64,000 nucleotides of DNA from Saprospiraceae bacterium UBA3362 (GCA_002360455.1 DEQQ01000096.1:1-64000); one strand, 5' to 3'; positions 144 to 18,944 are shown, counted from the stretch's first letter. Program-made: numbers and translations. Notes: generated by a model not told the origin, from the sequence alone.

Positions 144-488
144 ATGAGTACAAAATCATCAATTTTTCTAACCAAAGACAACGAACATTGTTTTTTTGAA
201 ACTTCAGAACCATTATATGAAAATGGTAAGTTTTTAGGCGAAACTATTTATTTAGAAATGGACAAAAAAAATGTGGATTTGGTTTGTAATGACGAAACTA
301 ATATAATAGTTTCAATTAAACCAAACACTGAATTGCATTCTATTATTAGCGATTTAAAAAATGGTCCTTTTTATAAAGTCCATAGGCTTTTGAAAGATTT
401 GATTAAATGGGAAGAATCAAATCATATTGATTCAGATTTGTTAGAAAGAATAAATAGTTGTTATGAAGACTTAAATCCTTACGCTTAA
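144..488 (+). CDS. hypothetical small protein (114 aa), opposite orientation to the neighbouring cassettes
   Basis: Intact ORF from the six-frame track. No recognisable motif. Followed by palindromic repeat copy A. Confidence 0.35.
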   Translation: MSTKSSIFLTKDNEHCFFETSEPLYENGKFLGETIYLEMDKKNVDLVCNDETNIIVSIKPNTELHSIISDLKNGPFYKVHRLLKDLIKWEESNHIDSDLLERINSCYEDLNPYA

Positions 489-495
489 CGTGTCG

Positions 496-637
496 CATAG
501 CATATAACGTTTTGCAGATTTGCGATGGGCGGGATTTTCAGCACAAAAGTTCATGCGGAGAACTGAACTTTCGGCTACCACAAAACTGTCTGCGGAGCGC
601 GAAACCCCGCCTATTGCAAATGTGCTGTTATGCGGTC
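496..637. repeat. attC-like imperfect palindromic repeat, copy A (GCATATAACG...stem GGCGGG/CCCGCC...CTGTTATGCGG)
   Basis: Read directly: terminal inverted boxes ..ATAAC.. / ..GTTAT... A long inner stem TTTGCGATGGGCGGG pairs with CCCGCCTATTGCAAA. Internal tandem half-repeats ACAAAAGTTCATGCGGAG / ACAAAACTGTCTGCGGAG. Lies 12 bp downstream of the stop of minus-strand ORF 650..1381. Related copies occur at ~1405, ~10356, ~11780 and ~16942. Confidence 0.55.
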
Positions 638-649
638 GTTTTTTGTTTG

Positions 650-1381
650 TCATTGCATATACATTTGAATATTTCCTTTAATCGTGTCATTAATTTGGAC
701 TTTATATTTTATGTCTGGTCTGCCCTTTACAAGATAGTCCGTGAAAGCATAGTAACAGCTTTCAGAAACTTTAATGTCTAAGGTGCTTGTTTTGTCCCAT
801 CGAATATCTGTAAAACAGTCGAAGTCATATTTTGAAATATAAAAATTTCCGAATTTGGGTATGCTATCGCCCTGATTAATTATAGAAATGTTTAGAAAAT
901 AGTTTCCGTTAACCGGCTTTATATACTTGTAAACAACAAGATCATACTTATCATTGGGCGAAGTGTCACGATAAAATATTTTTCGCTGGAAAGAACTGTC
1001 GATTGGATCTATTTGTTTCACTTTTATTACAATTCCTTTTAGAATTGTGTCCCGCAAGTTTGATTTATTATTACTGACAAACTCTGTAAAATTTTCAGCA
1101 ATAATTACCGTGTCGTTTCCGCTCCAGTATATATTGTCAAAGTCGAGGCTTGAATAGGAAAAATTTGCGCCTTGTTTAAATGTGTCGACAGCATTCATTA
1201 TTGTCGTTAACGATGTTCTACTTCCGTCCCAAGCTCCTTGCTCGTAACGATAGGTCAACAAGCATTTAGAACTGTCGGGAGAGTAAACTCTCGATATCTC
1301 AGTATAAGTCCCAGGAGATTTTGTAAAGTCGCAACTCACAAGTCCAAACGTAATTGTCAATATGATTAAAGTTAACCTCAA
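650..1381 (-). CDS. hypothetical lipoprotein (signal peptide with lipobox LVSC)
   Basis: N-terminus MRLTLIILTITFGLVSCDF is a hydrophobic signal followed by Cys. No catalytic motif recognised. Single-gene cassette between repeat copies A and B. Confidence 0.5.
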   Translation of the reverse strand: MRLTLIILTITFGLVSCDFTKSPGTYTEISRVYSPDSSKCLLTYRYEQGAWDGSRTSLTTIMNAVDTFKQGANFSYSSLDFDNIYWSGNDTVIIAENFTEFVSNNKSNLRDTILKGIVIKVKQIDPIDSSFQRKIFYRDTSPNDKYDLVVYKYIKPVNGNYFLNISIINQGDSIPKFGNFYISKYDFDCFTDIRWDKTSTLDIKVSESCYYAFTDYLVKGRPDIKYKVQINDTIKGNIQMYMQ

Positions 1382-1404
1382 TGTTTCTGTGTCGTTTTTA
1401 AAAA

Positions 1405-1542
1405 TGCCGCATAACGGTTTGGGTATTGCCGAAGGCGGGGCATTTCAGCACAACTGTTGATTTGAAAAACTAAAGTTCGGTTAAGCACAAAAGTGTCATA
1501 AATGCACGTCACCCCCGCTTTTGGCAATACCTTGTTACCTGC
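1405..1542. repeat. attC-like imperfect palindromic repeat, copy B
   Basis: The 19-bp stem GGTATTGCCGAAGGCGGGG pairs with CCCCGCTTTTGGCAATACC. Outer boxes are GCATAACGG ... CTTGTTACC. The loop contains a CAGCACAA motif shared with copies A, C and D. Confidence 0.55.
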
Positions 1543-1760
1543 TGGCCTTCCTTCTGTCGTTTCGTTGTATACCTTGTCAATATTGATTTTTCGTGTCATT
1601 GTCTGCTGTGTTTGTCGGGCTGTGTGTTGGTGTATTTTTATTTATTTTAGAAGCGTTGGGAAATTTTTTAAAAACAATTTTTGTCTGCGTTGGCAAAGCA
1701 AGCTCTTTTGCAATTTTTGGTCTGTGCTTAGGCTTGTGCGAATTGCAAATGTGCTTGCTT

Positions 1761-2060
1761 TTAGGGCTGGCTTTCCTTCCGTTTAATAAATATTGATATT
1801 AAAAGTCCTATTCCAATAATTACGTCAACTATGTTCCATATTTGTCTGCCAAGTGCGATTTTAAAAAACGGTTGAAATAACAAAGCCAGTCCGCCATAAA
1901 TTACCATTTCCGTCTGTCGCCCTTTTTGGTTTGCCTGATAAGCTAAAACTGCAAATCCAATTAGTCCAGCAAACCTTACAAATTGATAGTATCCGTAAGG
2001 CATATCTGCCAAGCAAATGAAAAATAATAGAGCAAGAGTGATTTTAATTAATACTGTCAT
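1761..2060 (-). CDS. small integral membrane protein (about 3 TM), last gene of the seven-gene operon
   Basis: Hydrophobic segments throughout. The start codon overlaps the stop of the upstream CpXC gene (TAATG). Confidence 0.45.
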   Translation of the reverse strand: MTVLIKITLALLFFICLADMPYGYYQFVRFAGLIGFAVLAYQANQKGRQTEMVIYGGLALLFQPFFKIALGRQIWNIVDVIIGIGLLISIFIKRKESQP

Positions 2061-2596
2061 TAAAAAATCAATTTTGATATTCCGTATAATAAACTAGAAC
2101 TAAAAACAAACAGAATTAAAGCAACACCCATACAACCACTATTTTTCTTTTTATTTTTATCTTGTAAGTGCTTCAAAAAGCCTTGCATTTGGTCGTTCAT
2201 CTCTTTGCTCATGGTTCCTTGCTTTCCCTTCAGTTCTCCATTTTCAAATTTCAAAATTGTATTTTTAAACTCGCTCCAACTCTTGATTCTTGGAGCAGTA
2301 GCAAGGTAGTTCCCTTCGCCCAACATTTTTGCATATCCAACACTATCGCTATCTATTTGAGCATCATATTCAGGCTCCCACCAAACAGCAAAATGCTGGT
2401 CAGCGTTTGTATAAATAAAGGGGAACTGTAACTTGGTTGACCTGTTGCAACTGGGACATTTAGTGACATTTATCTTGTCTGACATTACAAGTTCACGATT
2501 TTCAGGGTATTCACCCCAAATTGACCGATACAAGGTAAATTCAAATTGATGATTACAGTTAGGGCAGGTAATTTTGGCTTCAACACGTTTACTCAT
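2060..2596 (-). CDS. CpXC-domain zinc-ribbon protein with C-terminal TM helix
   Basis: Two CPxCN / CPSCN pairs (CPNCNHQF ... CPSCNRST) typical of the CpXC family. C-terminal hydrophobic tail GVALILFVFSSSLLYGI. Confidence 0.55.
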   Translation of the reverse strand: MSKRVEAKITCPNCNHQFEFTLYRSIWGEYPENRELVMSDKINVTKCPSCNRSTKLQFPFIYTNADQHFAVWWEPEYDAQIDSDSVGYAKMLGEGNYLATAPRIKSWSEFKNTILKFENGELKGKQGTMSKEMNDQMQGFLKHLQDKNKKKNSGCMGVALILFVFSSSLLYGISKLIF

Positions 2597-2597
2597 A

Positions 2598-3164
2598 TTA
2601 GTTGACTTCGTTTATTTGTTCAAATTGTGGGAAATCAGCAACTTCTTGAAAATGATGTAACAACTTTTCAATGCTCGAATCGGTGTCAATATCTTCCTTG
2701 AGGAAAGATTCAATATCAGGGAACTCTGCTAAAATCCTATCATTGGAAAGTTTAAGATGGTGTCTAATAGCTTTAAAAAACTTTACCTCAGCATACTTAA
2801 TTTCTTCATCAGCTTTAATAGTTTCTATTGCGAAATTTATCAGCATTAATTCTTCGCTTTCGCTTAGGACAAGGCTATTGATTTCTTTGAAAAAATTAGA
2901 AATAAACTCACTTGAATTATTATTAATCTTGCTTACTAGTGAATTGATTTCAGCTAAAAAGTCATAGTTTTTAAATACATCTTCAGCTTTACAAAGACTT
3001 TTAATTAATTCAATTTCACGCTTGTCAATTTCTCCATCTGAGGCCATGCAACAGAATGCAGTTTTCAGAAGTACTTTGTCAAATGTTGTTGTTTCCATGT
3101 TTTTAACTTTTAAATCCAATCCTAGGTCTTCCTGATGGCTCGTCATCACCATCTTCACCTTCAA
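2598..3164 (-). CDS. TerB-family (tellurite-resistance TerB / DjlA N-terminal-like) protein
   Basis: Motif MASDGEIDKREIELIKSL is characteristic of TerB. The ORF as drawn overlaps the kinase gene by 62 nt. An alternative start at METTTF (position 3098) leaves a 4-nt gap and is equally plausible. Confidence 0.6.
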   Translation of the reverse strand: MKVKMVMTSHQEDLGLDLKVKNMETTTFDKVLLKTAFCCMASDGEIDKREIELIKSLCKAEDVFKNYDFLAEINSLVSKINNNSSEFISNFFKEINSLVLSESEELMLINFAIETIKADEEIKYAEVKFFKAIRHHLKLSNDRILAEFPDIESFLKEDIDTDSSIEKLLHHFQEVADFPQFEQINEVN

Positions 3165-4908
3165 TTTTCTTTCTAATTTCTTCGTATTTTCTTAGTTCAG
3201 CAAGGCTGATTGTTGGCCTAATCTTGTTGATAGCATTTTCTAGGATTTGAATTGTAACTTTAGAATCTGCTTGAAGAGCCATTCTCGCTGCCTCGCTGCA
3301 TATAAGCTCAATTTCCGCTGTTACTCGGTGTTCTGTCAACTTAGCAAGCTTCTCGTAGTCAATCCCAAAATCTAAAGGCTTCTTTTTAAGATAAACCTTG
3401 AACAGTTCTTGTCGTAATTGAAAGTCGGGAGGGCCTATGTAAAATTTCTTCTCTAATCGACCAGCTCCTAGTATAGCTGGATCAATCATATTAGGGTAGT
3501 TGGTTGCTCCTACGACAAAAATCCCCTTTTCGCCTGTACGATCCATTTGTGCAAGCATTTCGTTTACGGCACTCTTAGACATTTCATGAACCTCACTATC
3601 TCTGTTTGGTAGCAACTCGTTCAATTCATCAATAAAAATAATTGTAGGGGCATTTTTTTCTGCTTCTTCAAACATTTTTGCAATGTTCTCTTGAGTTGCA
3701 TTAACGTATCTGCTTTTTAAAGTTGACGGTTTAATGTACATATAATTGTAGCCAACTTCCTCTGCGAATTTTTTAGCAAAAAAAGTTTTACCACAGCGTG
3801 GAGGACCATAAAAGAGAATCCCATTGGGAAAAGGAATGTCATATTTCTTGTATTTTTCCGGATCTTTAAGTGCATTTATTACATCCACTGTGAGAAGCTT
3901 TTTCAAATCATCCATACCAGCAATTGAATCAAAACCAGTTCCTTTTGCTTTTGTAGTTAATGGCTTATTTTCAACTTTTTGCTTATCAGACTTTTGAAGT
4001 CTCACTAAATCAACATCCTCAACTTCTAATTCGCTATTGATGGCTTCAATAAAATCATTTGCACTTTTAAATCTTAATTCCGGATCTGATGCAAGCGCTT
4101 TTTTAAGTATCAGCTTTGTGTTATCATCAACATCAGATATGTTGTGAAAATTAGAAAATCCCAGAGATCGTTTTCTTTCTTGAATAATTTCTTCTTCAAT
4201 ACCACCTCGTTCTAAAGAAAAGTTTGAAATCGGCTTAAACCACGGAGCAAAACCACTGAACATGTTGTAATAAACTGCTCCAGCTGAAAAAATATCAGAT
4301 TGAGGTGAATAAATATTATTGAAACACTCAGAAGCAATATAGTTTAAGTTCAAGTGCTCTTTGTTATAGCTTTTATTTGGCTGATGGAATCTTCTTGCAT
4401 ATCCAAAATCTATAAGCTTAGCCACTGGCATTTCTGGATCCGACAAATCAAGCATAATGTTCTGTGGTGTAACTTCATTATGTATGATCGGATCAGATAA
4501 ACCATGCAAATAATCAAGGGCTGATAGCAAATCCACAACAATAGATTGGTAAATTTCAATTTCATCCTTATCGCCTCTTGCTAACCTATCTGCCAGAGTT
4601 TCTCCGCTGATGAAATCAAGAACCATGAAAATATACTTACTTCCATTTGAAACAACTTCACCACTATCGAGATAGCTAACAATATTCTCATGATCAACTT
4701 CTTTCAAAAGTTCAATCTCTAAAATATCCCCACCAGCACTAAAAGCGGTTCGGTGTATCTTGGATGGGTAAAACAATTTAAGAAAGCAAACCTTTCCGTC
4801 TTTTGACTTTACACGATATGTCTCTGCATTAATACCATTCTTTATAGGAAATAAAACCTGGTAATCACCAATTTTGTCATCTCTTTTGAATATATGCGAT
4901 GCTTTCAT
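3103..4908 (-). CDS. fusion protein: N-terminal Ser/Thr protein kinase-like domain plus C-terminal classical AAA+ ATPase
   Basis: Kinase-like stretches GDYQVLFPIKNGINAETYRVKSKDGKVCFLK, HNEVTPQNIML and LIDFGYAR. AAA+ features: Walker A GPPRCGKT, Walker B IIFIDELN, and an SRH-like GATNYPNMIDPAILGAGRL. Confidence 0.75.
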   Translation of the reverse strand: MKASHIFKRDDKIGDYQVLFPIKNGINAETYRVKSKDGKVCFLKLFYPSKIHRTAFSAGGDILEIELLKEVDHENIVSYLDSGEVVSNGSKYIFMVLDFISGETLADRLARGDKDEIEIYQSIVVDLLSALDYLHGLSDPIIHNEVTPQNIMLDLSDPEMPVAKLIDFGYARRFHQPNKSYNKEHLNLNYIASECFNNIYSPQSDIFSAGAVYYNMFSGFAPWFKPISNFSLERGGIEEEIIQERKRSLGFSNFHNISDVDDNTKLILKKALASDPELRFKSANDFIEAINSELEVEDVDLVRLQKSDKQKVENKPLTTKAKGTGFDSIAGMDDLKKLLTVDVINALKDPEKYKKYDIPFPNGILFYGPPRCGKTFFAKKFAEEVGYNYMYIKPSTLKSRYVNATQENIAKMFEEAEKNAPTIIFIDELNELLPNRDSEVHEMSKSAVNEMLAQMDRTGEKGIFVVGATNYPNMIDPAILGAGRLEKKFYIGPPDFQLRQELFKVYLKKKPLDFGIDYEKLAKLTEHRVTAEIELICSEAARMALQADSKVTIQILENAINKIRPTISLAELRKYEEIRKKIEGEDGDDEPSGRPRIGFKS

Positions 4909-4924
4909 TTTTACTTTTTAACAA

Positions 4925-7480
4925 TTAACGCTTAACGCACACACACTGATTTTTCTTTTTACCACAATGTGGGCACATTTCATCAGGATAGTTATTTTCA
5001 ACCTCAATACAAATTGGGAGTAAACTTTCCTCTGTTGGATTTGTAGCAATAATTGATAACCCTTGATTAACTAGTTGCCTTACACGGTCTCTATTTTTCC
5101 AGTAAATCATATCAAAATGCTCATTCCATCTCCGGATGCTATTTATAAGCTGATAAATGAGAGTAATCATCATAAAGAGTGTATTGATCTCTTTAAGCAC
5201 ATCCTTACCTAAGCTTAGATCTTTTGACCTAATAATCTCATCAGTTCTTTTACGTAATTTACTTACCGCTTCATTTGTATTTTCATTGCCAAGGTCATTA
5301 TTTGCTCTTTCCAGCCTATCAAATTCAGAACGGATTTCTTTTTCCATTCTATCCCATTCTGTCCCTTGGCTAACATCGTCAACCTTTATTAAAATATCTC
5401 GCATTTTATCAAAGGTTTCTTTTCTTCTGTCTTCATCACCTTTTCCTTTTTCAAAATACTCTCTTAAATCCTTAAGTTCTTTTTCAAGTTCATTGATTCT
5501 ATTTTCATCTTGAAGAACTCCAGATTGCTTTATTTCACGAATTATTTTGAAACCATTTCTAAATTCAGATTCGATTTTATCTGAATCTGGAATTGATTGT
5601 CTATGGTTTTTGTCAATCTTCATTTCATACTGAAACTCTAACGCATGGAAATATGCTTTAACTGTAATTCCTTCATTTCTGTCAACACTTACAGTTAAAT
5701 CAAATGTGCTGTTTGCTGGAAGTAAAGCAGGTAAGTCTTCCCCTGAAATGTCAATGTCGTAAACATGGTCGTTATATATTGCCCTAGAGCCTTCCGCATT
5801 ATTATCTCCCTGATATAATGGAATTCGTAAAAAATCTGACTTAATTCCAGGCCTAATTTGACTGGAAGTTCGAAGCCCGTTACTAATACCTGTTGCTGGT
5901 GTAAGTTTATTTTTTTCAAGACCACGTAAAGGAATAAAAACCATTCGCTCAACATCCTCATCTAAAACCTCAACGCCGTAGTAATAGGGCAAATTAACAC
6001 CACCACCGCCACCATCTCCAATACCATGAAGAATTGTGAAAGAGTTTGGTGAGGCTTCTAATTGATCGCCTTTGTCATTGAAGAGTTTAATAAGAAAACT
6101 ATTAGGAGTGTATTCTGCAAGTAAAACATCTAGTATTTTTACTTTATTAGTTAATTCCATTTTTCCTGAAGACCAAGCATCATCTGACCTAAATATTTGA
6201 AAAAACAATTTCTCTTTTTCAAAAGAAGAGTAATTTTTACACTTCAAACTAATCTTAACTTCTGTGTCTGTAACTGGTGTGTTATAATTCAACTCTAAAT
6301 CAACAAGATGTTTTTCATTTGAAGGTTCAGAAATTATCTCACTATTTATTGTTGAAGCAAAAATCGCAGCACCTTTTGCTACAACTGTCATCGCATCAAG
6401 CGAAAAGTCTACTTTTTTGGTAATTTGATTTTCTAACATCTCTCTTAAAAGAGGTGTTTTAGTAGGGCCTCCAACAAGAACAAGAGCATCAATTTTATTT
6501 GGTTCAATGTTAGCATTTTTAAGCAATTCTTTTGTTTTATCAACTGCTCTTTGAAAATATTTTTTTTGAACTTGATTCAACTGTTCTTTTGTGATTTCTA
6601 GTTCAATTGTAATATCATTACCTTCATCATCAATACCATATTCTGCGAATTCATCAAATATTAATACTTTATCAACATCTTTCTTTGACAACTCAATTTT
6701 CTTCTGCTCGGCGTCAATTTTCAGAACATTTCTCAAACTTTCTTTTCTATTTTCATCGGCTAGCATTTCATCAATTGTGAAATTATTTTTTAGATATGGA
6801 ATAATAATTTCATCAACAATAGCATAATCAATATTTTTTCCTCCCAGGTAATTATCCCCCTCAGTATTTTCAACCGTAAACACTCCATCTTTAATTTTTA
6901 AAAGAGCTGCATCAAATGTCCCTCCACCGAAATCAAATACAATCCAATATCCATCCTTAATTTTCGATTTCAAGCTATATGCATAAGCCGCTGCAACAGG
7001 TTCTGACAGCAATTCACATTGCTCGAAACCAGCAAGTGCTGCTGCTCTTTTAGTTGCCTCCTTCTGATTAGCTCCAAATTTTGCAGGAACAGTTATTACT
7101 ACACTTCTAAGAGTTTCATCATCAATATTTTGTTTGAGTTTTTTTAGAACCTCTGAAGATAGATCCTCTGATGTAAATTCCTTTTCATGATTAGACGAAA
7201 AATACATCTTATCAGTTCCCATTGTTCTTTTAAACTCAATGAAAACATTTGAAGTGTAATTTTCATTTTTAATTTGAGCTCTTTTATCAACTCCCATTTG
7301 TCTTAGTGCCTTGTCACCAACATCAATTACACCTCTTTTTTTAAGAGAAACGCATGAAGGGACTGTGTCCATTCCAGTTTCAGGATCCTTTTTGATAATT
7401 GGTTCACCAAGTTCAATTCTAGCAATTGCTGAATTGGTAGTGCCTAAGTCAATTCCGTAATCAATTTTTACTCTTGCCAT
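4925..7480 (-). CDS. divergent Hsp70/DnaK-family ATPase (851 aa) with long coiled-coil C-terminal region ending in a Cys cluster
   Basis: Hsp70 nucleotide-binding-domain signatures IDLGTTNSA, VITVPAKFGANQKEATKRAAALAG, EPVAAAYAYSL, DFGGGTFDAALL and LVGGPTKTP. The C-terminal ~450 aa are non-canonical and end in CPHCGKKKNQCVCVKR. Confidence 0.8.
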   Translation of the reverse strand: MARVKIDYGIDLGTTNSAIARIELGEPIIKKDPETGMDTVPSCVSLKKRGVIDVGDKALRQMGVDKRAQIKNENYTSNVFIEFKRTMGTDKMYFSSNHEKEFTSEDLSSEVLKKLKQNIDDETLRSVVITVPAKFGANQKEATKRAAALAGFEQCELLSEPVAAAYAYSLKSKIKDGYWIVFDFGGGTFDAALLKIKDGVFTVENTEGDNYLGGKNIDYAIVDEIIIPYLKNNFTIDEMLADENRKESLRNVLKIDAEQKKIELSKKDVDKVLIFDEFAEYGIDDEGNDITIELEITKEQLNQVQKKYFQRAVDKTKELLKNANIEPNKIDALVLVGGPTKTPLLREMLENQITKKVDFSLDAMTVVAKGAAIFASTINSEIISEPSNEKHLVDLELNYNTPVTDTEVKISLKCKNYSSFEKEKLFFQIFRSDDAWSSGKMELTNKVKILDVLLAEYTPNSFLIKLFNDKGDQLEASPNSFTILHGIGDGGGGGVNLPYYYGVEVLDEDVERMVFIPLRGLEKNKLTPATGISNGLRTSSQIRPGIKSDFLRIPLYQGDNNAEGSRAIYNDHVYDIDISGEDLPALLPANSTFDLTVSVDRNEGITVKAYFHALEFQYEMKIDKNHRQSIPDSDKIESEFRNGFKIIREIKQSGVLQDENRINELEKELKDLREYFEKGKGDEDRRKETFDKMRDILIKVDDVSQGTEWDRMEKEIRSEFDRLERANNDLGNENTNEAVSKLRKRTDEIIRSKDLSLGKDVLKEINTLFMMITLIYQLINSIRRWNEHFDMIYWKNRDRVRQLVNQGLSIIATNPTEESLLPICIEVENNYPDEMCPHCGKKKNQCVCVKR

Positions 7481-7491
7481 AATTATTAGTT

Positions 7492-8397: not shown

Positions 8398-10163
8398 TAA
8401 TATTCGGTTTGTTTAACTTTTAGTTTCAGAGCATTTATCTTATCTTCTTGGGACTTTATTTGAGATGCTTTCTCTCTTTCGCTTCTTTCTTTTAATGCTT
8501 TAATTTTCTTGTTCTGTTCTGCAATTTGACGATCCTTTGTTTCCTGAGTTCTCAAAAACTGCCATTGTTTAATAGAATCCATTTCAGCATTAGCTGCTCT
8601 TATCTCTGACGAAAGAGGTGTTGAATTTTGAATGTCTCTTAGTTTGGATTGAGCAGCTGAAAGTTCCTTTTGAGCCTTCTCTTTAGGAGAAAGTGTTGAT
8701 ACACTTATTTGAGAAGCTAATTTCTTTAATCCTTCAAGATTCTTTTTATAGTGCGTCTTGAAATTCGCATGCATATCAAATAAGCCAATTTTAAAAGAAA
8801 CATCCAGTGCAGATTCAACAGCATTTCTCAAAGAAGCTGGTGGCAATTGAAAAGTAGCAGATGAACTAGCAGCATTTACTTCTTTATTTACACACTCTAC
8901 TAAGGTTCCTTGAGCATGACTTGCTATGGCAGTGCTTAAGTTTAAGTAAAGATCATCGTCACTTCCCAACGCCTTTCTCATGTTTAAAATTTTAGGCCAG
9001 CAAGAATCTACTAATTCTTTCGCCTTTCTTATTGTATCGGAAAGATTTTCATATCGTTCCAATTTTCCCGCAATAAATTCTAAGTCGTCTTTAATTAATT
9101 TCTGCTTTGCCCTATCATATGCATTATCTATCCAACCTTGCAAGCTTTCCAGGTTTTCTTTAACTCTTTGTTTGATTAGATCACCTTCCGCTAAATCCTT
9201 TGCATAACCAAACAATTCCAAAGCGTCATCGCTCGGATCAAAATCCTCTTCTTTGAATTCATTGAAGAAATCTATTCCACATTGAAGAATCTCGTCAGCA
9301 ATTTTATCTGAAATACTTTTGTATTTGAGATTTGATTTACCAAGTACATTTCTAATTTGAGCAATTAATTCACTTGTGCTTTCATATAGTTCCCTACCAT
9401 ATACTTCAGCATCCCTTGCATTATCATTACGCTTTTCTTTAGTTTCGCTAATCAAAGACTCAATTGATCGTATAGGTTTTTGAATTGAATCTTTTAAAAA
9501 ATCATCTTTCGCAGAGAATTCAGCTTTTGAAACGATTTCAAATACTTTATCTGACGATACACTTTCATATTTGTCTAACTCTTCTTGAATTGCTTTTAAA
9601 AAAATAAGTTGAAGCTTAGATTTATCTTGAGATTCATGAGGATCAATAAAGCTGGAAAAAAAATTATCTGAGTGCTTACTCTCAATAAATTTCAATTGCA
9701 TAAGTACTCCTTCCTCAAGAACTTTGACGAAGACTCTACTACTTTTGAACGCAGCATTAATCTTCAGGATAGATAAGTTGTGATATGCTGAAGCATTTGA
9801 TGCGTTAACGTCTTTTTCTCCAATTATTGATTGCCATACTTCTGATGCGTTTTCTAAATCACCATCCCGAATAGATTCGAATGCATCTCTATCTCCAACT
9901 TTACTTCCTTCATAAAACCAAAAAATACTATTGAGTATTTTTTCGCTTGCAATATTCAATTTGGAATTAGCTGAGTTAATAGTTTCAAGCGTTCTAACAA
10001 TTTTACCAATTCGATCAAATCCATAAGGAAGTTCTTCCTCTGGGATTTCTTCATCTGCTGATAAATATATTTTAAGATTATTTACTCTGCTGAGAATAAC
10101 CTTGGGACTAGTTCCAACTAATACACCTAATAATCTATGTGGATTATTCTTTATAAGTTCCAT
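8397..10163 (-). CDS. hypothetical coiled-coil protein, first gene of the operon; N-terminus weakly J-domain-like but lacks HPD
   Basis: 588-aa ORF. The C-terminal third is strongly coiled-coil (KIKALKERSEREKASQIKSQEDKINALKLKVKQ). N-terminal LLGVLVGTSPKVILSRVNNLKIYL resembles J-domain helix II, but no HPD tripeptide is present. Confidence 0.45.
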   Translation of the reverse strand: MELIKNNPHRLLGVLVGTSPKVILSRVNNLKIYLSADEEIPEEELPYGFDRIGKIVRTLETINSANSKLNIASEKILNSIFWFYEGSKVGDRDAFESIRDGDLENASEVWQSIIGEKDVNASNASAYHNLSILKINAAFKSSRVFVKVLEEGVLMQLKFIESKHSDNFFSSFIDPHESQDKSKLQLIFLKAIQEELDKYESVSSDKVFEIVSKAEFSAKDDFLKDSIQKPIRSIESLISETKEKRNDNARDAEVYGRELYESTSELIAQIRNVLGKSNLKYKSISDKIADEILQCGIDFFNEFKEEDFDPSDDALELFGYAKDLAEGDLIKQRVKENLESLQGWIDNAYDRAKQKLIKDDLEFIAGKLERYENLSDTIRKAKELVDSCWPKILNMRKALGSDDDLYLNLSTAIASHAQGTLVECVNKEVNAASSSATFQLPPASLRNAVESALDVSFKIGLFDMHANFKTHYKKNLEGLKKLASQISVSTLSPKEKAQKELSAAQSKLRDIQNSTPLSSEIRAANAEMDSIKQWQFLRTQETKDRQIAEQNKKIKALKERSEREKASQIKSQEDKINALKLKVKQTEY

Positions 10164-10355
10164 GATTTGATAAATGTAACAAAATTGATTTGATTTCCAT
10201 TTGTGCGGCTGGCTAAAATTGTTTTTAAAAAATGTGCAGTGGAAAAAAAAATACAGAAGTGTTGGCTTTTGGGCCGGCTGTCTGTGGGTTCAATTGTCCC
10301 GTTAAATTATATTTATTTCTGTCGTTCATTCTTGTTGTGTCGTCTTTTAGGCTTG

Positions 10356-10500
10356 CAGGTAACGGTCCTGGCATAGACGCTGCACCGCCTTTTTAACAAC
10401 AACCAAAAATAAAGAAATAGATTTTCAATGCCGGAGAAAATTAAAAGAGAATGATTTAATCTGCTAGGCGGTGTAGCGTCTATGCCATGTTACTGGCCGT
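10356..10500. repeat. attC-like imperfect palindromic repeat, copy E (variant loop)
   Basis: About 28-bp arms: GTAACGGTCCTGGCATAGACGCTGCACCGCC pairs with GGCGGTGTAGCGTCTATGCCATGTTACTGGCC. Outer boxes GGTAACGG / CATGTTACTGG. Lies 11 bp downstream of the stop of ORF 10512..11747. Confidence 0.5.
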
Positions 10501-10511
10501 CTTAGTTGCAA

Positions 10512-11747
10512 CTATTTTAAAATTTCAATTATCTTATTTTCCTTAAATCTTAGTTTTCTAAAAAGGATACCTTTTTCATTAAATATTTCCTGTATACCAT
10601 TAATTTGATCCGACTCGTAATTTGTTCTTTCCATTATTATACCTCTTTCGTTATAAAGTTCCCAGATACCTTCTTTTTGTCCTAGATTATTATAATTTCC
10701 TTTTTCTAATAATTGTCCCGGTTCGGAATATTTTTCATATTTTCCGTATGGTAGATAATTTTTAGTAGAACGAACTAGTTCAATAGAGGAATTGCAATCT
10801 GAAAAAAACTTAATCGATTCTTCTATGATTTCGCCATCGGTTGTATAAATGTATTTTATTGCTTCATAAGGGTATTCGTGCTTTAATTTACATGTTTTAT
10901 TAATGTCATCATAATAAGAATTTCTAAATTGAATTTTTCCATTATTCCATTGTTCTACCCAACTAATTTTTCCAGAATTAGCAAAGTATTCAATTCTAAT
11001 ACCTTCAAATTGAAACTCATCTTGATTTAAAGGATAACTAAAGTGAAGACCATTTCCTTTACTATGATCCATATTACAGCATTCACGAGAAGGAAAATTA
11101 ATAATATTTGCCTCATAAATTAATTGATGACCATTTTTCCCATAATTATCATATGTTTTTGTGAGTCCGTATAATAAACCATTTTTATATGATTCTTCAT
11201 TTTTAAATTTTAATTTACCTTCAACATATTCAAATTCGTACAATTTTTTATATGGCTCCCCATTTTTTAAAAATGCTATTAATTGTGGATAATAACATTT
11301 TTGATTATCATCGACATTATAATGAACCTCATAACCATTTTTCAATCCTTCTTTTATTTGAATTCTTTGTATGGGAATATTTTTAAAATTCCTTTCAATA
11401 TCATCTCTGAGGAAGTTAATTTCACCGGTAAAAAGTTCTTTAGATTTCCGCGCATATACTTTAGTATTAAGACATCCAAAGCAATTACTATGAAAGTTAT
11501 GTGGTACATCACTAATTTCATCATTTTCGGGATATTCCTCATCTCCTAATGCAATGAAATCATTCCAAGAAATATAACTTGTATTGATTTCCAATTTTGA
11601 AGCATAGTCAAAAATAATTGAAGAATCTGGAATAAGTTCAAGTTCAACATTTCTGCAAGGACAACGTGGAAGCGATTGACTAATTAAATTTCCTGAGCAA
11701 AGTGAGAATATTAAAATTGCTTTTGAAAAATAATAATTTATTTTCAT
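10512..11747 (-). CDS. secreted MORN-repeat-variant (YwqK-like) lipoprotein
   Basis: Signal peptide MKINYYFSKAILIFSLCSGN. Repeated G-x-W/Y...NG motifs (GQKEGIWELYNERGIIMERTNYESDQINGIQEIFNEKGIL). Single-gene cassette. Confidence 0.5.
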   Translation of the reverse strand: MKINYYFSKAILIFSLCSGNLISQSLPRCPCRNVELELIPDSSIIFDYASKLEINTSYISWNDFIALGDEEYPENDEISDVPHNFHSNCFGCLNTKVYARKSKELFTGEINFLRDDIERNFKNIPIQRIQIKEGLKNGYEVHYNVDDNQKCYYPQLIAFLKNGEPYKKLYEFEYVEGKLKFKNEESYKNGLLYGLTKTYDNYGKNGHQLIYEANIINFPSRECCNMDHSKGNGLHFSYPLNQDEFQFEGIRIEYFANSGKISWVEQWNNGKIQFRNSYYDDINKTCKLKHEYPYEAIKYIYTTDGEIIEESIKFFSDCNSSIELVRSTKNYLPYGKYEKYSEPGQLLEKGNYNNLGQKEGIWELYNERGIIMERTNYESDQINGIQEIFNEKGILFRKLRFKENKIIEILK

Positions 11748-11779
11748 TTAATTATTTTTGGAAATTAATAATTGGATGG

Positions 11780-11915
11780 CCAGTAACGGTTTGCGGCTTG
11801 GCGTAGTGGCGGATTTTCAGCACAAAACTTCATACGAAGCACCGAACTTGAACCTACCACAAAACTGTCATACGAAGCACTGGACCCGCCATTACGCCAA
11901 ACCGCTGTTGTGCGT
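11780..11915. repeat. attC-like imperfect palindromic repeat, copy C
   Basis: Stem GCGGCTTGGCGTAGTGGCGG pairs with CCGCCATTACGCCAAACCGC (2 mismatches). Internal tandem half-repeats CACAAAACTTCATACGAAGCAC / CACAAAACTGTCATACGAAGCAC. Outer boxes CCAGTAACGG / GCTGTTGTGCG. Confidence 0.55.
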
Positions 11916-12042
11916 TCGGTGTTTTTCTTTCGTCCTGATTGTCTGTCGGTTGCGGGTTGGAACAGACACACTCTTTGCCAAGTTTTGGATTGAGCTTGGG
12001 CTGGTGCGACTTGGCAATGTGTGTGGCTGTTGAGCGTTGGCA

Positions 12043-14115
12043 TTATAGTTTAATTTCAATGATTTGACTGGTGTCCACTCCTAAAATGTCAACTACTTTC
12101 ACCATTACACGGAATGTTCCTTTTTGGGTGTATTCGTGTTCTGCTGAAATAAATTCCAGTGTTCGGTCTTGTTTGGTGCGGAAGGTCTGCCATTCGTTTT
12201 CAAAAATGTAGTTGCCTGTCCATTGTTCTTCTGTTTCTCCTGCTTCGTTTGTAATACGAATAATTTCTTTTTTGCTGTGATAGTCAAAGTCCACACTCCA
12301 ATAGTCAATCCAATCGTGCCAATTTTCAGTTAAAGTCTCACGGTTAATAATTCCGTTTTTGTCCTTGCTTACTTTGATGATTTGACCGTTTTCAATCACG
12401 ACTTTACTTCCTGCTCGCATACTTTCTTGAATGTCTTCAATGTCGTCTTGCGTGTAGTTGGTTACAAAGTCGGTGAGTTCAATTTTTACTTTATTGCCTT
12501 TTATGATGGGTTTGGCTTGTAAATACGAAACATCATAAAACTTTACTTGTCCTTTGTCCACCGCTCTCGGGTCGAATACATCTTTTGGAATGTAACGCAA
12601 TCGAATGTCTACACCTTGTTCTTTAAATTCTTGGTTTATGCGTGGTTGTAAGCCCATTTCAAACTCAAAGCCCAAAACATCTACTTGTGTAATCAAATTG
12701 GTTCTGCACTCTTCAAAAATTTCTTGCACTCTGCTTTGGGTTACAGGCATATCCAAAGGACCAATATGTACAAAACGACTTGCTTTTTTGGCGTGAAGTG
12801 TAGAGTAATTTTCTATGCGTTGAGCGGAATATGCTCTGCAAATCAAATCCAAATAGGCTTCTTCTTTGCGTTTACGCTGTCCATTGACCAAATCATCTAT
12901 AAAAAACTGCCTTTCGTATTTGCCCAAATTCAAAATCTCAAAAGCTCTGAAATCTTTCCCATTTTCTTTGAGTTCTCTTTGCACGTTAATAAGACGTTTT
13001 CTAGTGGTATGAATAGAAAACCTGCCTAAATCACACGCAATCCACTTTCTGTTTAAAAGTTCTGCCGCTACTGGTGTAGTTCCACTACCGCAAAAGAAAT
13101 CTGCAATTAAATCACCTTCATTAGTCGTAGAAGCTATAATTCTTTGTAAGAGTTTAATTGGTTTTTGTGTAGGGTATGAAACTCGCTCTACTGCTTCCCA
13201 ATTTAATTGTTCTATATCAGTCCAATAATCTTCAGCTAATTTTGTTAATGGATATCTATAAACTTTACCTGATTTGGCATCAGTTTTTTCCTGCCATTGA
13301 ACTCCAAATTCATCAATTACAGTTCGCATATGACTGTCTGGCTTTTTTGGAACTTGAAGATTTTCGTCTTCATTGTTAAATAGCCATTTTTCTGACTTTG
13401 AATAAAACAAAATATTGTCGTGTTTCCTTGCAAACATTTCTTTGGATTTGCCACCTATCGAGTAACACCAAATTATTTCATTTTTGAAATTTTTATTGCC
13501 AAATATATCGTCAAGTAAAATTCTGATAACTGAATTTAATCTATAATCACAATGAACATATATAGTTCCTTGTGGATGCAATAAATTATGAATTAAAATT
13601 AAGCGTTCATATAACATTGATAAATAAGAAGAAATCCCTTTTTGCCACGTATCACGATAGGCAATTTCTTCTAACACACTTTGGCTTTTAGTAGCGGTTT
13701 CGCCATTTAATTCTATGGTATGGCTAAAATCAGCCCCAACTGCAAAGGGTGGGTCAATGTACACAAGTTTTAGTCCACCTTCTTTTTCTATTTCTTCTCT
13801 TAAAGGTCCATTTGCCAAAGATGAAAGAATTAGTTTGTTATCGCCCCAAATCAGTTTGTTATGCCACCCTGCTTTTTGTCTGCCTTTTATATCAAACAAT
13901 AAATTCGCTTCGTTGGCTTCCTTTCGTGGCTCGTCTATATGCTCAATGTGATGAAAAGGCAAAGCCACATTGGTAATTTCTTCCTTTCTGCCATTCCAAA
14001 AAAGGAAGACATCTTCTTCATCACTATACATTTTGTATATATACTCTTTAGGTATCGGCTCATTATTTTTAATCGCCTGAATTACCAATTCTTTTTCTTT
14101 ATCTGATAGATTCAT
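12043..14115 (-). CDS. mod: Type III restriction-modification system methyltransferase (Mod; N6-adenine/N4-cytosine class)
   Basis: DPPF motif (LVYIDPPFAV). SAM-binding FFCGSGTT-like region. Immediately downstream of the res gene with a 9-nt gap. Confidence 0.8.
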   Translation of the reverse strand: MNLSDKEKELVIQAIKNNEPIPKEYIYKMYSDEEDVFLFWNGRKEEITNVALPFHHIEHIDEPRKEANEANLLFDIKGRQKAGWHNKLIWGDNKLILSSLANGPLREEIEKEGGLKLVYIDPPFAVGADFSHTIELNGETATKSQSVLEEIAYRDTWQKGISSYLSMLYERLILIHNLLHPQGTIYVHCDYRLNSVIRILLDDIFGNKNFKNEIIWCYSIGGKSKEMFARKHDNILFYSKSEKWLFNNEDENLQVPKKPDSHMRTVIDEFGVQWQEKTDAKSGKVYRYPLTKLAEDYWTDIEQLNWEAVERVSYPTQKPIKLLQRIIASTTNEGDLIADFFCGSGTTPVAAELLNRKWIACDLGRFSIHTTRKRLINVQRELKENGKDFRAFEILNLGKYERQFFIDDLVNGQRKRKEEAYLDLICRAYSAQRIENYSTLHAKKASRFVHIGPLDMPVTQSRVQEIFEECRTNLITQVDVLGFEFEMGLQPRINQEFKEQGVDIRLRYIPKDVFDPRAVDKGQVKFYDVSYLQAKPIIKGNKVKIELTDFVTNYTQDDIEDIQESMRAGSKVVIENGQIIKVSKDKNGIINRETLTENWHDWIDYWSVDFDYHSKKEIIRITNEAGETEEQWTGNYIFENEWQTFRTKQDRTLEFISAEHEYTQKGTFRVMVKVVDILGVDTSQIIEIKL

Positions 14116-14124
14116 ATTGCTGTA

Positions 14125-16785
14125 TTATTCTGCCGGAAAAATGGCTTTAACGTCATTAAATGATTTTAAACTGGCTTGATGTTTTTCCCAATCTTCTTGT
14201 TTTATGTAAATGGCTGTATATGATTTCTCACTTTGTTGTTCATTTACATCTCTGCACCATTGAGCCAATCGTCTTACTTTTCGAATATCGTCCAAATCTT
14301 CACGTCCTTTGGTTTCCACTATAAAAACGCTTTTGTCGTTTGTCTTTACAAAAAAGTCTGGAAAGTATTCTCTAATGTTTCCATCCTCTGCTTGATATTC
14401 AATTTTGAAATTTACACCACCATCACCCATTGTGTTTTTGGCAAAAGAAACTACATCTGCAAAACGATTTTCACAATAAGAAGCAAATTCCAATTCAAAA
14501 GGATTGTCGCCAATTACTTTATTGAAAATTGATTTTTTAGGAATTAAGAAAGGTTGTTCGTCTGTTACTTTTGGGCGAACTGTTTTAAGCGAAATGTAAT
14601 TTTTAATTTCTGCCGTTCCACTATCCGTTACTGTAAGGTCATTAATAGCGTTTTTGAAAGCAGTATAAAGAATTGCTTTGGGTTGTGCTTCGGAAAGGTT
14701 GCGAATTGATTGGGCATCTGATAAGTCAACCGATTTTCCGAATAGTTGGTGTTGAATAAAACTTTCTACTTTGGGATATAAGATATTGAAACCACTTACC
14801 AAACGGCTTTCTTTCAAAATGGCTTGCGTAAAAAAGCTGATTACGTTTCTATAATCTGCTATGCTGTCTTTGAAAATAGTCGTGTGCGAAATTTTATCTT
14901 CAATATCTTTAAAAACGATTTCTTTTAATTCTTCTGAATTGAAGGTTTTAAAAGGTGATTTTTCAAATTTTAATGTCGAAATATCCAAGTCTTTCAAATT
15001 TTTGTATTCTCTGTAAATTCTTGGGGTCATTTGAGGTATAGGAATGTCCAATTCATCTAAATCCTTGTTTGGATTTTCTTTGTCCACTTCAACAATGATT
15101 GGATTTTTGCCACGCTTTCCTTTACCCATAGGCGAGTATTGGAATTCAACGCCTTCTGTTTTTAGCGATTCCACAAACTCAATAAATGCAGGTGTGCCAA
15201 TTACCGACAAAGTTTCGTGAACATCTAACGAGAACATTTTTCGCAAACCACGACCTATGGCTTGTTCTGGAAGTATTTTAGAATCCGCATTGAAAGGGCG
15301 AAGCCCTACAATGGTGGTTACATTTCTAACATCCCAACCTTCACGAAGCATCAGAACAGAACAAATTGCTTTATATGGTGAAGTGTCTTTGTCCACATCA
15401 TCAGCTGCTTTTCTCAATGTTTCTAAATCTTCTTTTGCTTTTTTGCTTGTTGATGATTCTGAAATTTCACCCTTGCTGTTGGTATGAATACTTAAAACTG
15501 CATTTTTCAATAATGGATAAGTTCGCTCTAAATATTCGGCAATTGCATCAGACTCTTTTGTGGTCATTGCCATAATGAAAAGCAAAGGTGTTTTTTGGCT
15601 TTTTAGTTCTTCATATTGCTTCTCCCATTCAATGTAGCCCAAATGAATAAAGTCTTTGTAACGTTCTATTACATCATCAGATGGCTTTTCTTCTAATTTG
15701 TGTCTTGATGCTTCATCAGGTAAAACTGGAGACTTCACAACATTTTGTTGAATTGCTTCCACTAAAGGATAGTCGCAAATTGTCTGCACAAAAATTGCTC
15801 CTGTATTGTGCTTTGGTGTAGCGGTTACATCACACTGCAAGCCAATATGTTTGCCTGTTTTTAGCTTTAGTTTGTTGCTAATGTCTGCAATGCTTTTAAA
15901 CCAAGCCAAAGATGGGTCGTGAATGTGATGTGCTTCGTCATTGAGAATCACCAAGTCTTTAATTTTGTCACTTCTCAAAACTTTTCCAAGGTCAAGACCT
16001 TTTGAAGTGTCGGCATCAGCTTTTGGTTTTTTACCCAAAAACAATTCTTCTACACTTGGTTCTGTATCTTCATTTAGGAAAACTCTGTGAATGTTTGTCA
16101 AAAAGATGTTTCCTGAATCTGTAATTGGTTTTAGTTCGTCTTGAATGTGTAAAGTGAGTTGGAAATCATTTAACCAATCACGGTCTGCCCAACCATTTTC
16201 TGGAATAAATGGGTCTTCAAAGAAGTATTTAAGTCCGTCAAAATCTTTTCTAATTCTATTAAGAACAATGATGTTGGGTGCAATAACCAAGAAGTTTTTT
16301 GACAATCCTGTGTCTGCTTCATATTTGGCATTGAAGTAAGACCAAACTAACACTAAACCTAAAACTTTGGTTTTGCCTGTACCTGTTGCCATTTTGATAA
16401 CATAGCGTGTCCAATTTTCATCAAACATTCCTGTACTCACACGACCCGAACCATCAAATTTCAGTAATTCGTACTTGTCCTTGGCTTTAGCTATTTCATA
16501 CAAATAAATAACAGACTCAACCGATTCTCTTTGTGAAAAATAGAAGCTGAATTTTTGTCCGTTTTCGTTGGTGTGTTCTCTGTTAAACCAATGATTTAAA
16601 AGTGCTTTTGTAGTTTCTGTCGCTCCTTCATAATTGCTATTTCTCCATTCTTCAACTGCTTTTCTGACCTTATGTACAAGCGGTGCAAGAAGCATTTCGT
16701 ATTTATTCTTGAAAGCATCAAGTTGAGCTTGCCCTGGTGCCCATCTTTTGTCAGGCGTTAAAATCTCAAAAGGTTTATTATTCAT
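14125..16785 (-). CDS. res: Type III restriction endonuclease subunit (Res; SF2 helicase plus C-terminal PD-(D/E)xK nuclease)
   Basis: Helicase motif I ATGTGKT and motif II LNDEAHH. C-terminal PDFFVKT...IVETKG nuclease motif. Confidence 0.85.
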   Translation of the reverse strand: MNNKPFEILTPDKRWAPGQAQLDAFKNKYEMLLAPLVHKVRKAVEEWRNSNYEGATETTKALLNHWFNREHTNENGQKFSFYFSQRESVESVIYLYEIAKAKDKYELLKFDGSGRVSTGMFDENWTRYVIKMATGTGKTKVLGLVLVWSYFNAKYEADTGLSKNFLVIAPNIIVLNRIRKDFDGLKYFFEDPFIPENGWADRDWLNDFQLTLHIQDELKPITDSGNIFLTNIHRVFLNEDTEPSVEELFLGKKPKADADTSKGLDLGKVLRSDKIKDLVILNDEAHHIHDPSLAWFKSIADISNKLKLKTGKHIGLQCDVTATPKHNTGAIFVQTICDYPLVEAIQQNVVKSPVLPDEASRHKLEEKPSDDVIERYKDFIHLGYIEWEKQYEELKSQKTPLLFIMAMTTKESDAIAEYLERTYPLLKNAVLSIHTNSKGEISESSTSKKAKEDLETLRKAADDVDKDTSPYKAICSVLMLREGWDVRNVTTIVGLRPFNADSKILPEQAIGRGLRKMFSLDVHETLSVIGTPAFIEFVESLKTEGVEFQYSPMGKGKRGKNPIIVEVDKENPNKDLDELDIPIPQMTPRIYREYKNLKDLDISTLKFEKSPFKTFNSEELKEIVFKDIEDKISHTTIFKDSIADYRNVISFFTQAILKESRLVSGFNILYPKVESFIQHQLFGKSVDLSDAQSIRNLSEAQPKAILYTAFKNAINDLTVTDSGTAEIKNYISLKTVRPKVTDEQPFLIPKKSIFNKVIGDNPFELEFASYCENRFADVVSFAKNTMGDGGVNFKIEYQAEDGNIREYFPDFFVKTNDKSVFIVETKGREDLDDIRKVRRLAQWCRDVNEQQSEKSYTAIYIKQEDWEKHQASLKSFNDVKAIFPAE

Positions 16786-16941
16786 TTATCTTATTTCTAT
16801 TCGTGTCAAATTTACTTTTTATTGTTGGTTCGTCTGTCCGTGCGTTGGCAAAAAATGGCTCTTTTGGTTTTTTGAGCATTGGCTCGTGTGTCGGGAAAAA
16901 CCAAATGTGCCATTTGCGGGTCGGTTGTCTTTTTACACTGA

Positions 16942-17076
16942 CGCACAACGTTTTGGCGCTTGGCGCAGTGGCGGATTTCGGAGCACAAAACTGTCAATAA
17001 ACCACAAAAGTTGATGCGAGGTAGAATGTTCAATTAACCACGTCACCCGCCATTGAGCCAAACGCCTGTTATCGGC
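16942..17076. repeat. attC-like imperfect palindromic repeat, copy D
   Basis: GGCGCAGTGGCGG ... CCCGCCATTGAGCC arms. Outer boxes GCACAACG / CCTGTTATCGG. Loop contains the CACAAAACTGTC and CACAAAAGTTGATGCGAGG half-repeats. Lies 10 bp downstream of the stop of ORF 17087..17290. Confidence 0.5.
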
Positions 17077-17086
17077 TGCTCTTCTG

Positions 17087-17290
17087 TCAAGCATTAATGA
17101 TTTTAGTCACGTCTTCAACTGATTTTTCAATGTCAATTAGAGTGCCGTCCGACATTTTTATTCTTGTCAAAGGGTTGCTTCCAGTAGAGAGTAATTCTTC
17201 TACTTCAATGACATTGTCAGCATTGATGTGTCTTGCTTCTGTTTTTTTTGTGATGATGTCGTAAGCATCAACTTTGATAATTTTAGCCAT
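17087..17290 (-). CDS. small hypothetical protein (67 aa)
   Basis: Intact ORF 6 nt downstream of the membrane-protein gene. No recognised motif. Confidence 0.35.
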   Translation of the reverse strand: MAKIIKVDAYDIITKKTEARHINADNVIEVEELLSTGSNPLTRIKMSDGTLIDIEKSVEDVTKIINA

Positions 17291-17296
17291 AGTTAT

Positions 17297-17641: not shown

Positions 17642-17651
17642 AGACTTAGTT

Positions 17652-18923: not shown

Positions 18924-18944
18924 TTTGTTTTTTTTATTGGTTAA

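Follow-up and report, generated by a model that had tools for sequence, protein, structure and literature searches.

What are the long palindromes that separate blocks of accessory genes at one end of a 64,000-nt stretch of DNA from Saprospiraceae bacterium UBA3362 (GCA_002360455.1, DEQQ01000096.1:1-64000; hereafter the window)? An earlier note, made from the sequence, described five of them and proposed an integron-type array of attC sites without an integrase. Integrons are the textbook bacterial system for gene capture and shuffling, and the IntI-specific insertion of their recombinase and the extrahelical bases of attC sites are thought to let a tyrosine recombinase act on folded single-stranded DNA. 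Here the palindromes are interpreted, with a probability of about 0.8, as cassette recombination sites, in the role of attC, within a gene-capture platform of Bacteroidota that resembles integrons and has a Xer-like recombinase. Such a platform would consist of a Xer-like recombinase gene, an attI-like site 80–110 nt after its stop codon, and co-oriented cassettes that each end in a site of ~124 nt; the window would hold the attI end of one chromosomal array of this kind, with its recombinase gene decayed. The sequence comparisons that carry this interpretation concern the architecture and covariation of the sites, their cassette-specific R boxes, the recurrence of one cassette with exact ends, and the linkage and orientation of recombinase gene and attI-like site.

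Oriented sites at the ends of cassettes

The window contains six elements in a single orientation, five of them complete (A to E, from left to right) and one (element 0) cut by position 1 (Table 1). Inspection, a geometry scan and a covariance model all place the five complete elements where the earlier note had located them. The co-orientation that it claimed holds for every element, all being on the minus strand, and the cut copy confirms its suggestion that the array runs past the left end of the window. From the first base of AAC to the last of GTT (plus strand), the five complete cores measure 124–131 nt; the 135–145 bp first reported are obtained if cassette-specific flanks are counted.

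The geometry scan, with a pattern of AAC, 1 nt and a 20-nt arm, a loop, and the complementary arm, 5 nt and GTT, recovered elements A to E with identical geometry, and gave 0–2 matches in each of 20 shuffled windows. The covariance model was built from 26 distinct members of the family, taken from the window and from other loci, including elements A, B, D and E and leaving out C and element 0. It scores the four included elements at 108–121 bits and finds C (55 bits, E value of 3.5e-8) and element 0 (E value of 1e-3) independently, all on the minus strand. With filters off, the model detected no credible further site in the remaining 44 kb of the window, which carry core genes. The DNA of the elements read on the opposite strand reaches only 14–19 bits against the 108–121 bits of the site strand, and this strong asymmetry identifies them as oriented sites, not the plain imperfect palindromes first described. 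A search of the whole window against Rfam at the gathering threshold returned only a DUF805 RNA; Rfam does not contain an attC family.

The elements have a G+C content of 40–50%, compared with 34% for the genome. The distance from stop codon to element is 10–12 nt for A, C and E, 218 nt for B and 128 nt for D (Mod stop at 12043). The spacing of 10–12 nt that had been given for four of the five elements is thus correct for three and wrong for D, and the separate value given for B is correct. As had been noted, the minus strand encodes the genes between the elements, except for the leftmost open reading frame (ORF), at 144–488, which is on the plus strand.

Architecture of the site

All elements of the window and all 26 aligned sites have AAC at the start and GTT at the end. 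Compensatory changes occur at 19 of the 20 stem pairs among the 26 distinct sites. Stem position 14 is an A·C mismatch in every one of these sites, and position 11 is A·C in 16 of them. The spacer is asymmetric, with a single nucleotide (A) on the 5' arm and five (AAAMC) on the 3' arm.

The features that characterize canonical attC sites are extrahelical bases, a central spacer that stays unpaired, and a terminal structure that varies (PMC5027507). Of the three, the spacer alone has a possible counterpart in the present sites, an unpaired region that is strongly asymmetric. Extrahelical bases, which the earlier note had proposed to look for in the folded sites, were not found: the two 20-nt arms align without insertions or deletions in the 26 sites, and equal arm length leaves no extrahelical bases. 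The compensatory changes, together with the complementarity of R boxes 124 nt apart (described below), argue for selection on a folded strand.

The loops had been taken to be simply variable. Instead, they carry a phased motif, GTGS (usually TTTGTGC or TTTGTGG), in four slots near positions 30, 49, 67 and 86, approximately 18.7 nt apart. The motif was observed 84 times in the loops of 37 distinct sites, compared with 14.7 expected, and 0 times as its reverse complement. The loop of element C is divergent and does not have GTGS motifs. Stems nearly identical to those of elements B and D are present in Pseudopedobacter and Algoriphagus, and for element D both stem and loop have a nearly identical counterpart in Algoriphagus ornithinivorans (L022).

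Cassette-specific ends and recurrence of a cassette

With the elements read in cassette (minus-strand) orientation, the 6–7 nt before the AAC of an element are complementary to the bases after the GTT of its upstream neighbour, which form the start of the same cassette. All six cassettes of the window show this relationship, with 6–7 contiguous matches across the cassette as opposed to 0–2 nt with the element's own other end; for element 0, the flank GCATATAAC has its partner at the left end of element A. Pairing across the cassette is the signature of integron cassettes, because a cassette that has undergone exchange at GTT begins with bases complementary to the R'' box that its own site carries. 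For cassette 5, the partner predicted in this way, GCCGATAAC, has a single occurrence to the right of element E, at 19892–19900 in the non-coding gap. Elsewhere, among 27 consecutive pairs from 13 other loci, 20 match at 6/6 positions and 23 at 5/6 or better; random pairs match at 6/6 in 3%. GTT is consistently followed by a purine (GTTATCGGC, GTTGTGCGT, GTTACCTGC, GTTAGCGGT), and the positions after this purine depart from the RRY of the attC consensus RYYYAAC/GTTRRRY.

The SPFH/TerB cassette (cassette 5) recurs in different surroundings. An exact-protein look-up found an identical 238-aa protein of this cassette on many contigs. In seven contexts (the window and L003 to L008), the ends of the cassette are constant, G|TTATCGGCAACTCT...GCCGATAAC-site-G|TT, and the neighbours differ from the GTT outwards. 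In four of these contexts the cassette adjoins a different upstream cassette site, in two (the window and L006) it adjoins different non-site sequences, and in one it is a lone copy; comparison of the junctions places the exchange within GTT. The lone copy is inside a MarR-like ORF of GCA_963169555.1, a metagenome-assembled genome (MAG). In an empty-site reconstruction (L003), in-silico removal of the cassette reopens a 156-aa MarR-like frame, whose Pfam match extends over residues 27–87 only, short of the junction; the reconstruction is no more than suggestive. R-box pairing and the recurrence of the same cassette in seven contexts substantiate the proposal that the elements delimit mobile cassettes as attC sites do.

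attI-like site and recombinase remnant

The outermost junction of the window, at 19899, has the crossover-proximal sequence CGACAATAAAGAT|GTT (more fully, CGACAATAAAGAT|GTTATCGGC), which fits the family consensus ATAAAyrA|GTT. This consensus is drawn from loci in other genomes that carry a related recombinase gene. At 14 of 19 such loci, the 9-mer predicted from the R box of the first site occurs once, mostly 80–110 nt after the stop codon of the gene. Before these junctions stands ATAAAyrA, with an inverted pair and a direct copy of a locus-specific motif of ~12 nt lying further upstream. The layout of the window junction agrees with the 14 recombinase-linked junctions compared.

Upstream of the attI-like site, and in the expected orientation, the window retains the decayed 3' end of a recombinase gene. 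In a tblastn comparison with this remnant (20105–20293), 113 of 120 family members match, with a best E value of 1.3e-5 and at most 51% identity over 35 aa. The attI side therefore lies where the earlier note had expected it, in the 860-bp gap to the right of 19661. Its statement that no integrase is visible is correct in that no intact recombinase gene is present within the 64-kb window, and needs amending in that a decayed recombinase, not of the IntI type, is there. Since the gene is dead, present-day mobility would need a recombinase supplied in trans.

The edge of the array was also encountered in two other settings. A contig from an activated-sludge sample (L006) has the same array at 99.97% identity and, from ~14 nt past the junction, an unrelated flank made up of a gene end and a terminator (L006 1–270 compared with window 19913–20200). 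Either a second site, attI-like or secondary, is present there, or the assembly was joined at the repeated cassette. Core genes of the window encode proteins identical to those of a Saprospiraceae MAG obtained from activated sludge. Two other assemblies of the same species (L089 and L090; GCA_035438105.1, contig DAORHR010000001.1) both end 445–566 nt past the stop codon of the E1 dehydrogenase gene, at positions that coincide with the attI/recombinase-remnant edge of the array. Assembly ends at the array edge suggest an array that is repetitive or that varies between members of the population.

Linkage of sites and recombinase in other genomes

Relatives of the recombinase were surveyed by scanning one genome per species, which yielded 80 loci. 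Among them are those of Flavobacterium psychrophilum DSM 3660, Pseudopedobacter beijingensis, Algoriphagus ornithinivorans, Psychroserpens, Lutibacter and Brumimicrobium, as well as MAGs of Sphingobacteriales, Bacteroidales and Ignavibacteriota. Matches of the site model at these loci are placed downstream of the gene on the same strand (39) or upstream on the opposite strand (7), with 0 of 46 in the two other arrangements. Most recombinase genes are co-directional with their cassettes. Loci with the divergent layout typical of classical integrons are a minority and mostly have more distant recombinases (39–42% identity); the layout is seen at L069 (94–7205), L055 (92–215), L075 (7659–7782) and L079 (88–212). 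Restricting the comparison to loci where identity is 44% or more and the contig extends 1.5 kb or more past the gene leaves 18, of which 12 carry sites. In 39 of the 80 loci the contig breaks within 1.5 kb after the recombinase gene, as expected beside repeated arrays. The fallback of the earlier note, a lineage-specific structured repeat family that delimits defence cassettes, was close to this picture, except that the family is not confined to one lineage and extends across a large part of Bacteroidota.

The complete 66,482-bp plasmid NZ_CP041688.1 of Chryseobacterium sp. SNU WT5 encodes a recombinase of 49% identity. Its seven sites are all on the recombinase strand, in a single tract that begins downstream of the gene and continues across the origin, with 0 sites in the other ~48 kb of the plasmid. 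An IS110 element is located inside the array. A group II intron (RF02001, RF00029, ltrA; L092 18716–20690), on the strand opposite to the cassettes, abuts one of the sites, an arrangement that recalls the group IIC-attC introns of classical integrons.

A Bacteroidales MAG (L035, 13593–19912) has five co-oriented AAC...GTT hairpins of 155–169 nt downstream of a 42%-identical recombinase. They were missed by the 124-nt model, which suggests that longer variants of the site exist.

The linked recombinase

The recombinase is ~360 aa long, and its fold, with core-binding and catalytic domains, is closest to that of Xer proteins. In L004, a 358-aa tyrosine recombinase is encoded in the same direction as the cassettes, with its stop codon 100 nt before the first cassette junction. 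For the array-linked recombinase (L004 and P0001), the best NCBIfam model is XerA (NF040815, 230 bits with a cut-off of 220). The enzyme stays well below the cut-offs of the integron-integrase models, TIGR02249 (195 versus 265 bits) and NF011946 (112 versus 435 bits), with a match in two pieces. Similarly, in a structure-sequence comparison, the recombinase aligns with XerA end to end and with IntI4 (2a3v) in two blocks. The alignment has no counterpart of IntI4 residues 205–245, which we take to be the IntI-specific insertion that contacts extrahelical bases (VchIntIA structure). The insertion is absent from 20 of 20 aligned family members, which have only ~58 aa between KGxKDR and HxLRH. Common to these 20 members is an extra N-terminal domain of ~60 aa, with a predicted ββαββα topology. 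The family comprises at least 120 relatives with 53–98% identity, mostly from Bacteroidia MAGs, which are annotated at source as XerD or as 'site-specific tyrosine recombinase/integron integrase'.

Relation to integrons, Xer systems and structured repeats

The likeness to integrons extends over the whole organization of the array. Both systems have a recombinase gene, an adjacent attI-type site and a co-oriented cassette array; each cassette ends in an imperfect AAC...GTT hairpin with the crossover in a conserved triplet and begins with bases complementary to the R'' of its own site; and the same cassette occurs in different arrays. Defence and toxin–antitoxin cargo, the existence of plasmid and chromosomal forms, and a group II intron that abuts a site are also shared. 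It could therefore be asked whether the window is a canonical array, that is, a cluster of attC sites lacking an integron-integrase (CALIN), with ordinary attC sites and a classical IntI, encoded at another place in the genome, as the enzyme that moves them. The AAC...GTT ends, the imperfect hairpins of attC-like length, their position 3' of ORFs, their co-orientation and the cassette-specific R boxes would all be accommodated, and CALINs are common in other phyla (PMC4889954). We nevertheless regard this as very unlikely, since in many genomes, and on one complete plasmid, arrays of the same type begin beside a Xer-like recombinase, and in the 64 kb covered of the present genome the attI end itself carries a remnant of such a recombinase and not of intI.

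The differences from integrons concern both enzyme and site. The recombinase is XerA-like, scores under the IntI thresholds, does not have the IntI insertion and has an extra domain at its N terminus, and its gene is usually co-directional with the cassettes, whereas the layout typical of classical integrons is divergent. The sites are equal-armed and free of extrahelical bases, with an invariant A·C, a 1-nt/5-nt spacer and an R box of 9–10 nt. Their length is nearly fixed at 124 nt, and their conserved loops bear four phased GTGS motifs in place of a terminal structure that is free to vary. Cassettes can be as large as 9 kb, with seven genes. On these grounds, the membership among canonical integrons that had been proposed for the array is not upheld. 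A survey with IntegronFinder 2.0 points in the same direction, with a single complete integron in Bacteroidetes, in Salinibacter, and essentially none otherwise (PMC9024848); a 2024 preprint lists Bacteroidota among the clades earlier found without any integrons (10.1101/2024.07.02.601686), and a survey of Elizabethkingia found none (PMC11523902). No description of arrays of the present type was found in the full-text literature searched, which covers few of the subscription journals, so that an earlier description is possible.

In both sequence and fold, the recombinase is nearest to archaeal XerA and bacterial XerC, XerD and XerH, which are simple tyrosine recombinases. Housekeeping XerC/XerD-type machinery might move the cassettes, as proposed for the pdif modules of Acinetobacter plasmids, with the adjacent recombinase being incidental. 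This is very unlikely in view of the strict orientation and distance of gene, attI-like site and array, which left the two 'wrong' arrangements empty. The recombinase is linked to its array and has the conserved N-terminal domain that is absent from housekeeping Xer proteins. The sites are also of another kind: dif and pdif are short double-stranded 11-6-11-bp sequences (~28 bp) that form no hairpin, with pdif sites in alternating orientation, whereas the present sites are co-oriented hairpins of 124–131 nt.

That the elements are structured repeats unrelated to mobility can hardly be right: although they share GC-rich, intergenic palindromy with repetitive extragenic palindromic sequences and bacterial interspersed mosaic elements (REP/BIME, of RAYT transposases) and with MITEs (miniature transposable elements with inverted repeats), and follow convergently ended genes as long transcription terminators would, those repeats are dispersed genome-wide and do not delimit cassettes, whereas the present elements are clustered in one array, only between genes of one direction and always downstream of recombinase and attI-like site, have one shared orientation, no T-run after the hairpin, flanks that pair across cassettes and an identical cassette with exact ends in seven contexts, and the REP/MITE alternative of the earlier note is refuted by the absence of copies from the 44 kb of core genes in the window and by the confinement of all seven plasmid copies to the recombinase-linked tract. 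CRISPR-like, shufflon and invertase readings were ruled out, the repeats being direct instead of inverted, with a length of 124 nt and spacers of cassette size.

A possible mechanism and its difficulties

An integron-like platform with a Xer-like recombinase could operate as follows. One strand of the site would fold into a hairpin. In the free circular cassette, the R box of 9–10 nt (6–7 variable nucleotides plus AAC) would pair with the start of the cassette (GTT plus 6–7 nt), followed by the asymmetric 1-nt/5-nt spacer and then by the 20-bp stem. The R-box duplex and the base of the stem would provide two recombinase-binding arms around an unpaired centre and would thereby mimic a Xer core site. 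Strand exchange inside the invariant GTT/AAC would result in capture when the partner is attI, and in excision when it takes place between two sites. The fixed mismatch and the asymmetric bulge may mark the correct strand in place of extrahelical bases, which would fit the absence of the IntI insertion that reads them. As for the phased GTGS motifs of the loop, the extra N-terminal domain or a protein of the host may bind them. By analogy with integrons, we infer that the substrate would be single-stranded, and the choice of the strand to be used would follow the same analogy.

Several observations weigh against this interpretation. The sites used for covariation were chosen by a pairing-based scan, so the proportion of paired stem cells (87.5%, compared with 31–40% when the partner columns are slid by 1–3 positions) is high partly by construction, which does not apply to the compensatory changes and the invariant mismatch. 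Mismatches are present on both strands (T·G at stem position 5, A·C at 11 and 14), so the choice of strand cannot be read from thermodynamics; the gap in folding energy between the strands is only 0–5 kcal/mol and inconsistent in direction. In the array context, the R box pairs little beyond AAC/GTT. The recombinase gene of the window is decayed, and the array here may be frozen. Approximately one-third of the closer, sufficiently flanked recombinase loci have no match to the model (for example, L012, L024 and L054), which reflects either divergent sites in the array or other roles of the recombinase family. Finally, the linked recombinase is the presumed catalyst on the ground of linkage only.

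A broader proposal, to which we give even odds, is that Bacteroidota possess a phylum-wide system of integron logic, both chromosomal and plasmid-borne, that shuttles multi-gene defence between orders with a different toolkit and that either arose independently or is an ancient sister of integrons. The toolkit would consist of the Xer-like recombinase with its N-terminal domain, a site marked by mismatch and bulge, and GTGS loop motifs that are possibly read by the domain or by a host factor. If this is correct, the integron principle has more than one molecular solution, and the evolution of hairpin recombination from Xer-type enzymes becomes testable. It would also help to explain the near-absence of integrons in surveys of Bacteroidota, and would imply a large unannotated pool of mobile cassettes, here including a Type III restriction–modification (R-M) system and an Hsp70/kinase-AAA operon, that tools requiring the IntI insertion would call orphan repeats at best. 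Cultured hosts exist in Chryseobacterium sp. SNU WT5 (plasmid) and Flavobacterium psychrophilum DSM 3660.

Cassettes of the array and their surroundings

Table 1. Sites, recombinase remnant and cassettes at the attI end of the array (window coordinates)
Feature	Position	Strand	Core or size	Model score	Description
Element 0	1..108	-			Truncated copy, cut by window start; model match 1-102; GTT (+ strand) at 100-102; part kept is the cassette-proximal (5' in cassette orientation) portion of the recombination site
Element A	496..640	-	506-629, 124 nt	110 bits	Complete AAC..GTT site
Element B	1403..1546	-	1413-1536, 124 nt	110 bits	Complete AAC..GTT site
Element C	10351..10501	-	10361-10491, 131 nt	55 bits, E 3.5e-8	Complete AAC..GTT site
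Element D	11775..11919	-	11785-11909, 125 nt	121 bits	Complete AAC..GTT site
Element E	16937..17080	-	16947-17070, 124 nt	108 bits	Complete AAC..GTT site
attI-like site	19900..19965	-			In cassette orientation TTGCGTCAATAT-13 nt-ATATTGACGCAA-24 nt-G|TT; inverted repeat 19925-19961
Recombinase remnant	20105-20293	-			Decayed 3' end of gene; keeps KTTEIYTH (catalytic Tyr motif) and SPIDNMDI; in-frame stop
Cassette 0	109..507				Sole ORF 144-488 (114 aa) on + strand, opposite to other cassette genes; no Pfam match
Cassette 1	508..1414	-	907 bp		243-aa lipoprotein-like ORF 650-1381 and element A
Cassette 2	1415..10362	-	8948 bp		Seven-gene operon: DUF6804, CpXC, TerB-like, kinase-AAA+ fusion, Hsp70-like, coiled-coil/GrpE-like, 588-aa protein
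Cassette 3	10363..11786	-	1424 bp		One 411-aa ORF 10512-11747; no Pfam match
Cassette 4	11787..16948	-	5162 bp		Type III R-M: Mod 12043-14115, Res 14125-16785; 71-nt hairpin
Cassette 5	16949..19899	-	2951 bp		TerB/zinc-ribbon 18945-19661, SPFH-GYF 17652-18923, two small ORFs, DUF805 RNA leader

The array comprises at least six cassettes, whose cargo consists of three multi-gene units (the Type III R-M system, the Hsp70/kinase-AAA operon and the SPFH/TerB unit), two lipoprotein-like genes and a small reversed ORF. In cassette 2, whose operon has partial PADLOC matches, the kinase-AAA protein matches the PADLOC entries mad6, IetA and PD-T4-6 and is the sole protein of the cassette with a solid PADLOC match; the operon may represent an uncharacterised conflict system that travels as one 8.9-kb cassette.

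The Res protein of cassette 4 belongs to a 90%-identity cluster that includes Flavobacteriales MAGs, Arenibacter sp. GZD96 and a Lewinellaceae MAG. Relatives at least 90% identical in other orders point to transfer between orders, and the comparison is consistent with cassette 4 having moved recently. Between the Mod stop and element D, the same cassette has a 71-nt AAC...GTT hairpin (11961–12031), whose R''-side flank, ACGCTCAAC, is complementary at 8 of 9 positions to the start of cassette 4 (GTTGTGCGT). This hairpin may be a shorter recombination site of the cassette, either a second one or a vestige, or else a terminator.

The DUF805 RNA motif (RF03081, 75 bits) is at 19685–19752 on the minus strand, in the leader of the TerB/zinc-ribbon gene. 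Its location inside cassette 5 provides this cassette with a cis-regulatory RNA of its own, and presumably with its own promoter.

Exact-protein look-ups intended to extend the array leftwards gave only a 531-bp contig for the ORF at 144–488 and no record for the DUF6804 protein; that of CpXC gave an 8.4-kb contig, which ends inside the window. On the other side of the array, beyond the recombinase remnant, the window continues with core genes for an E1 dehydrogenase, a LacI-type regulator and a SusC-like receptor.

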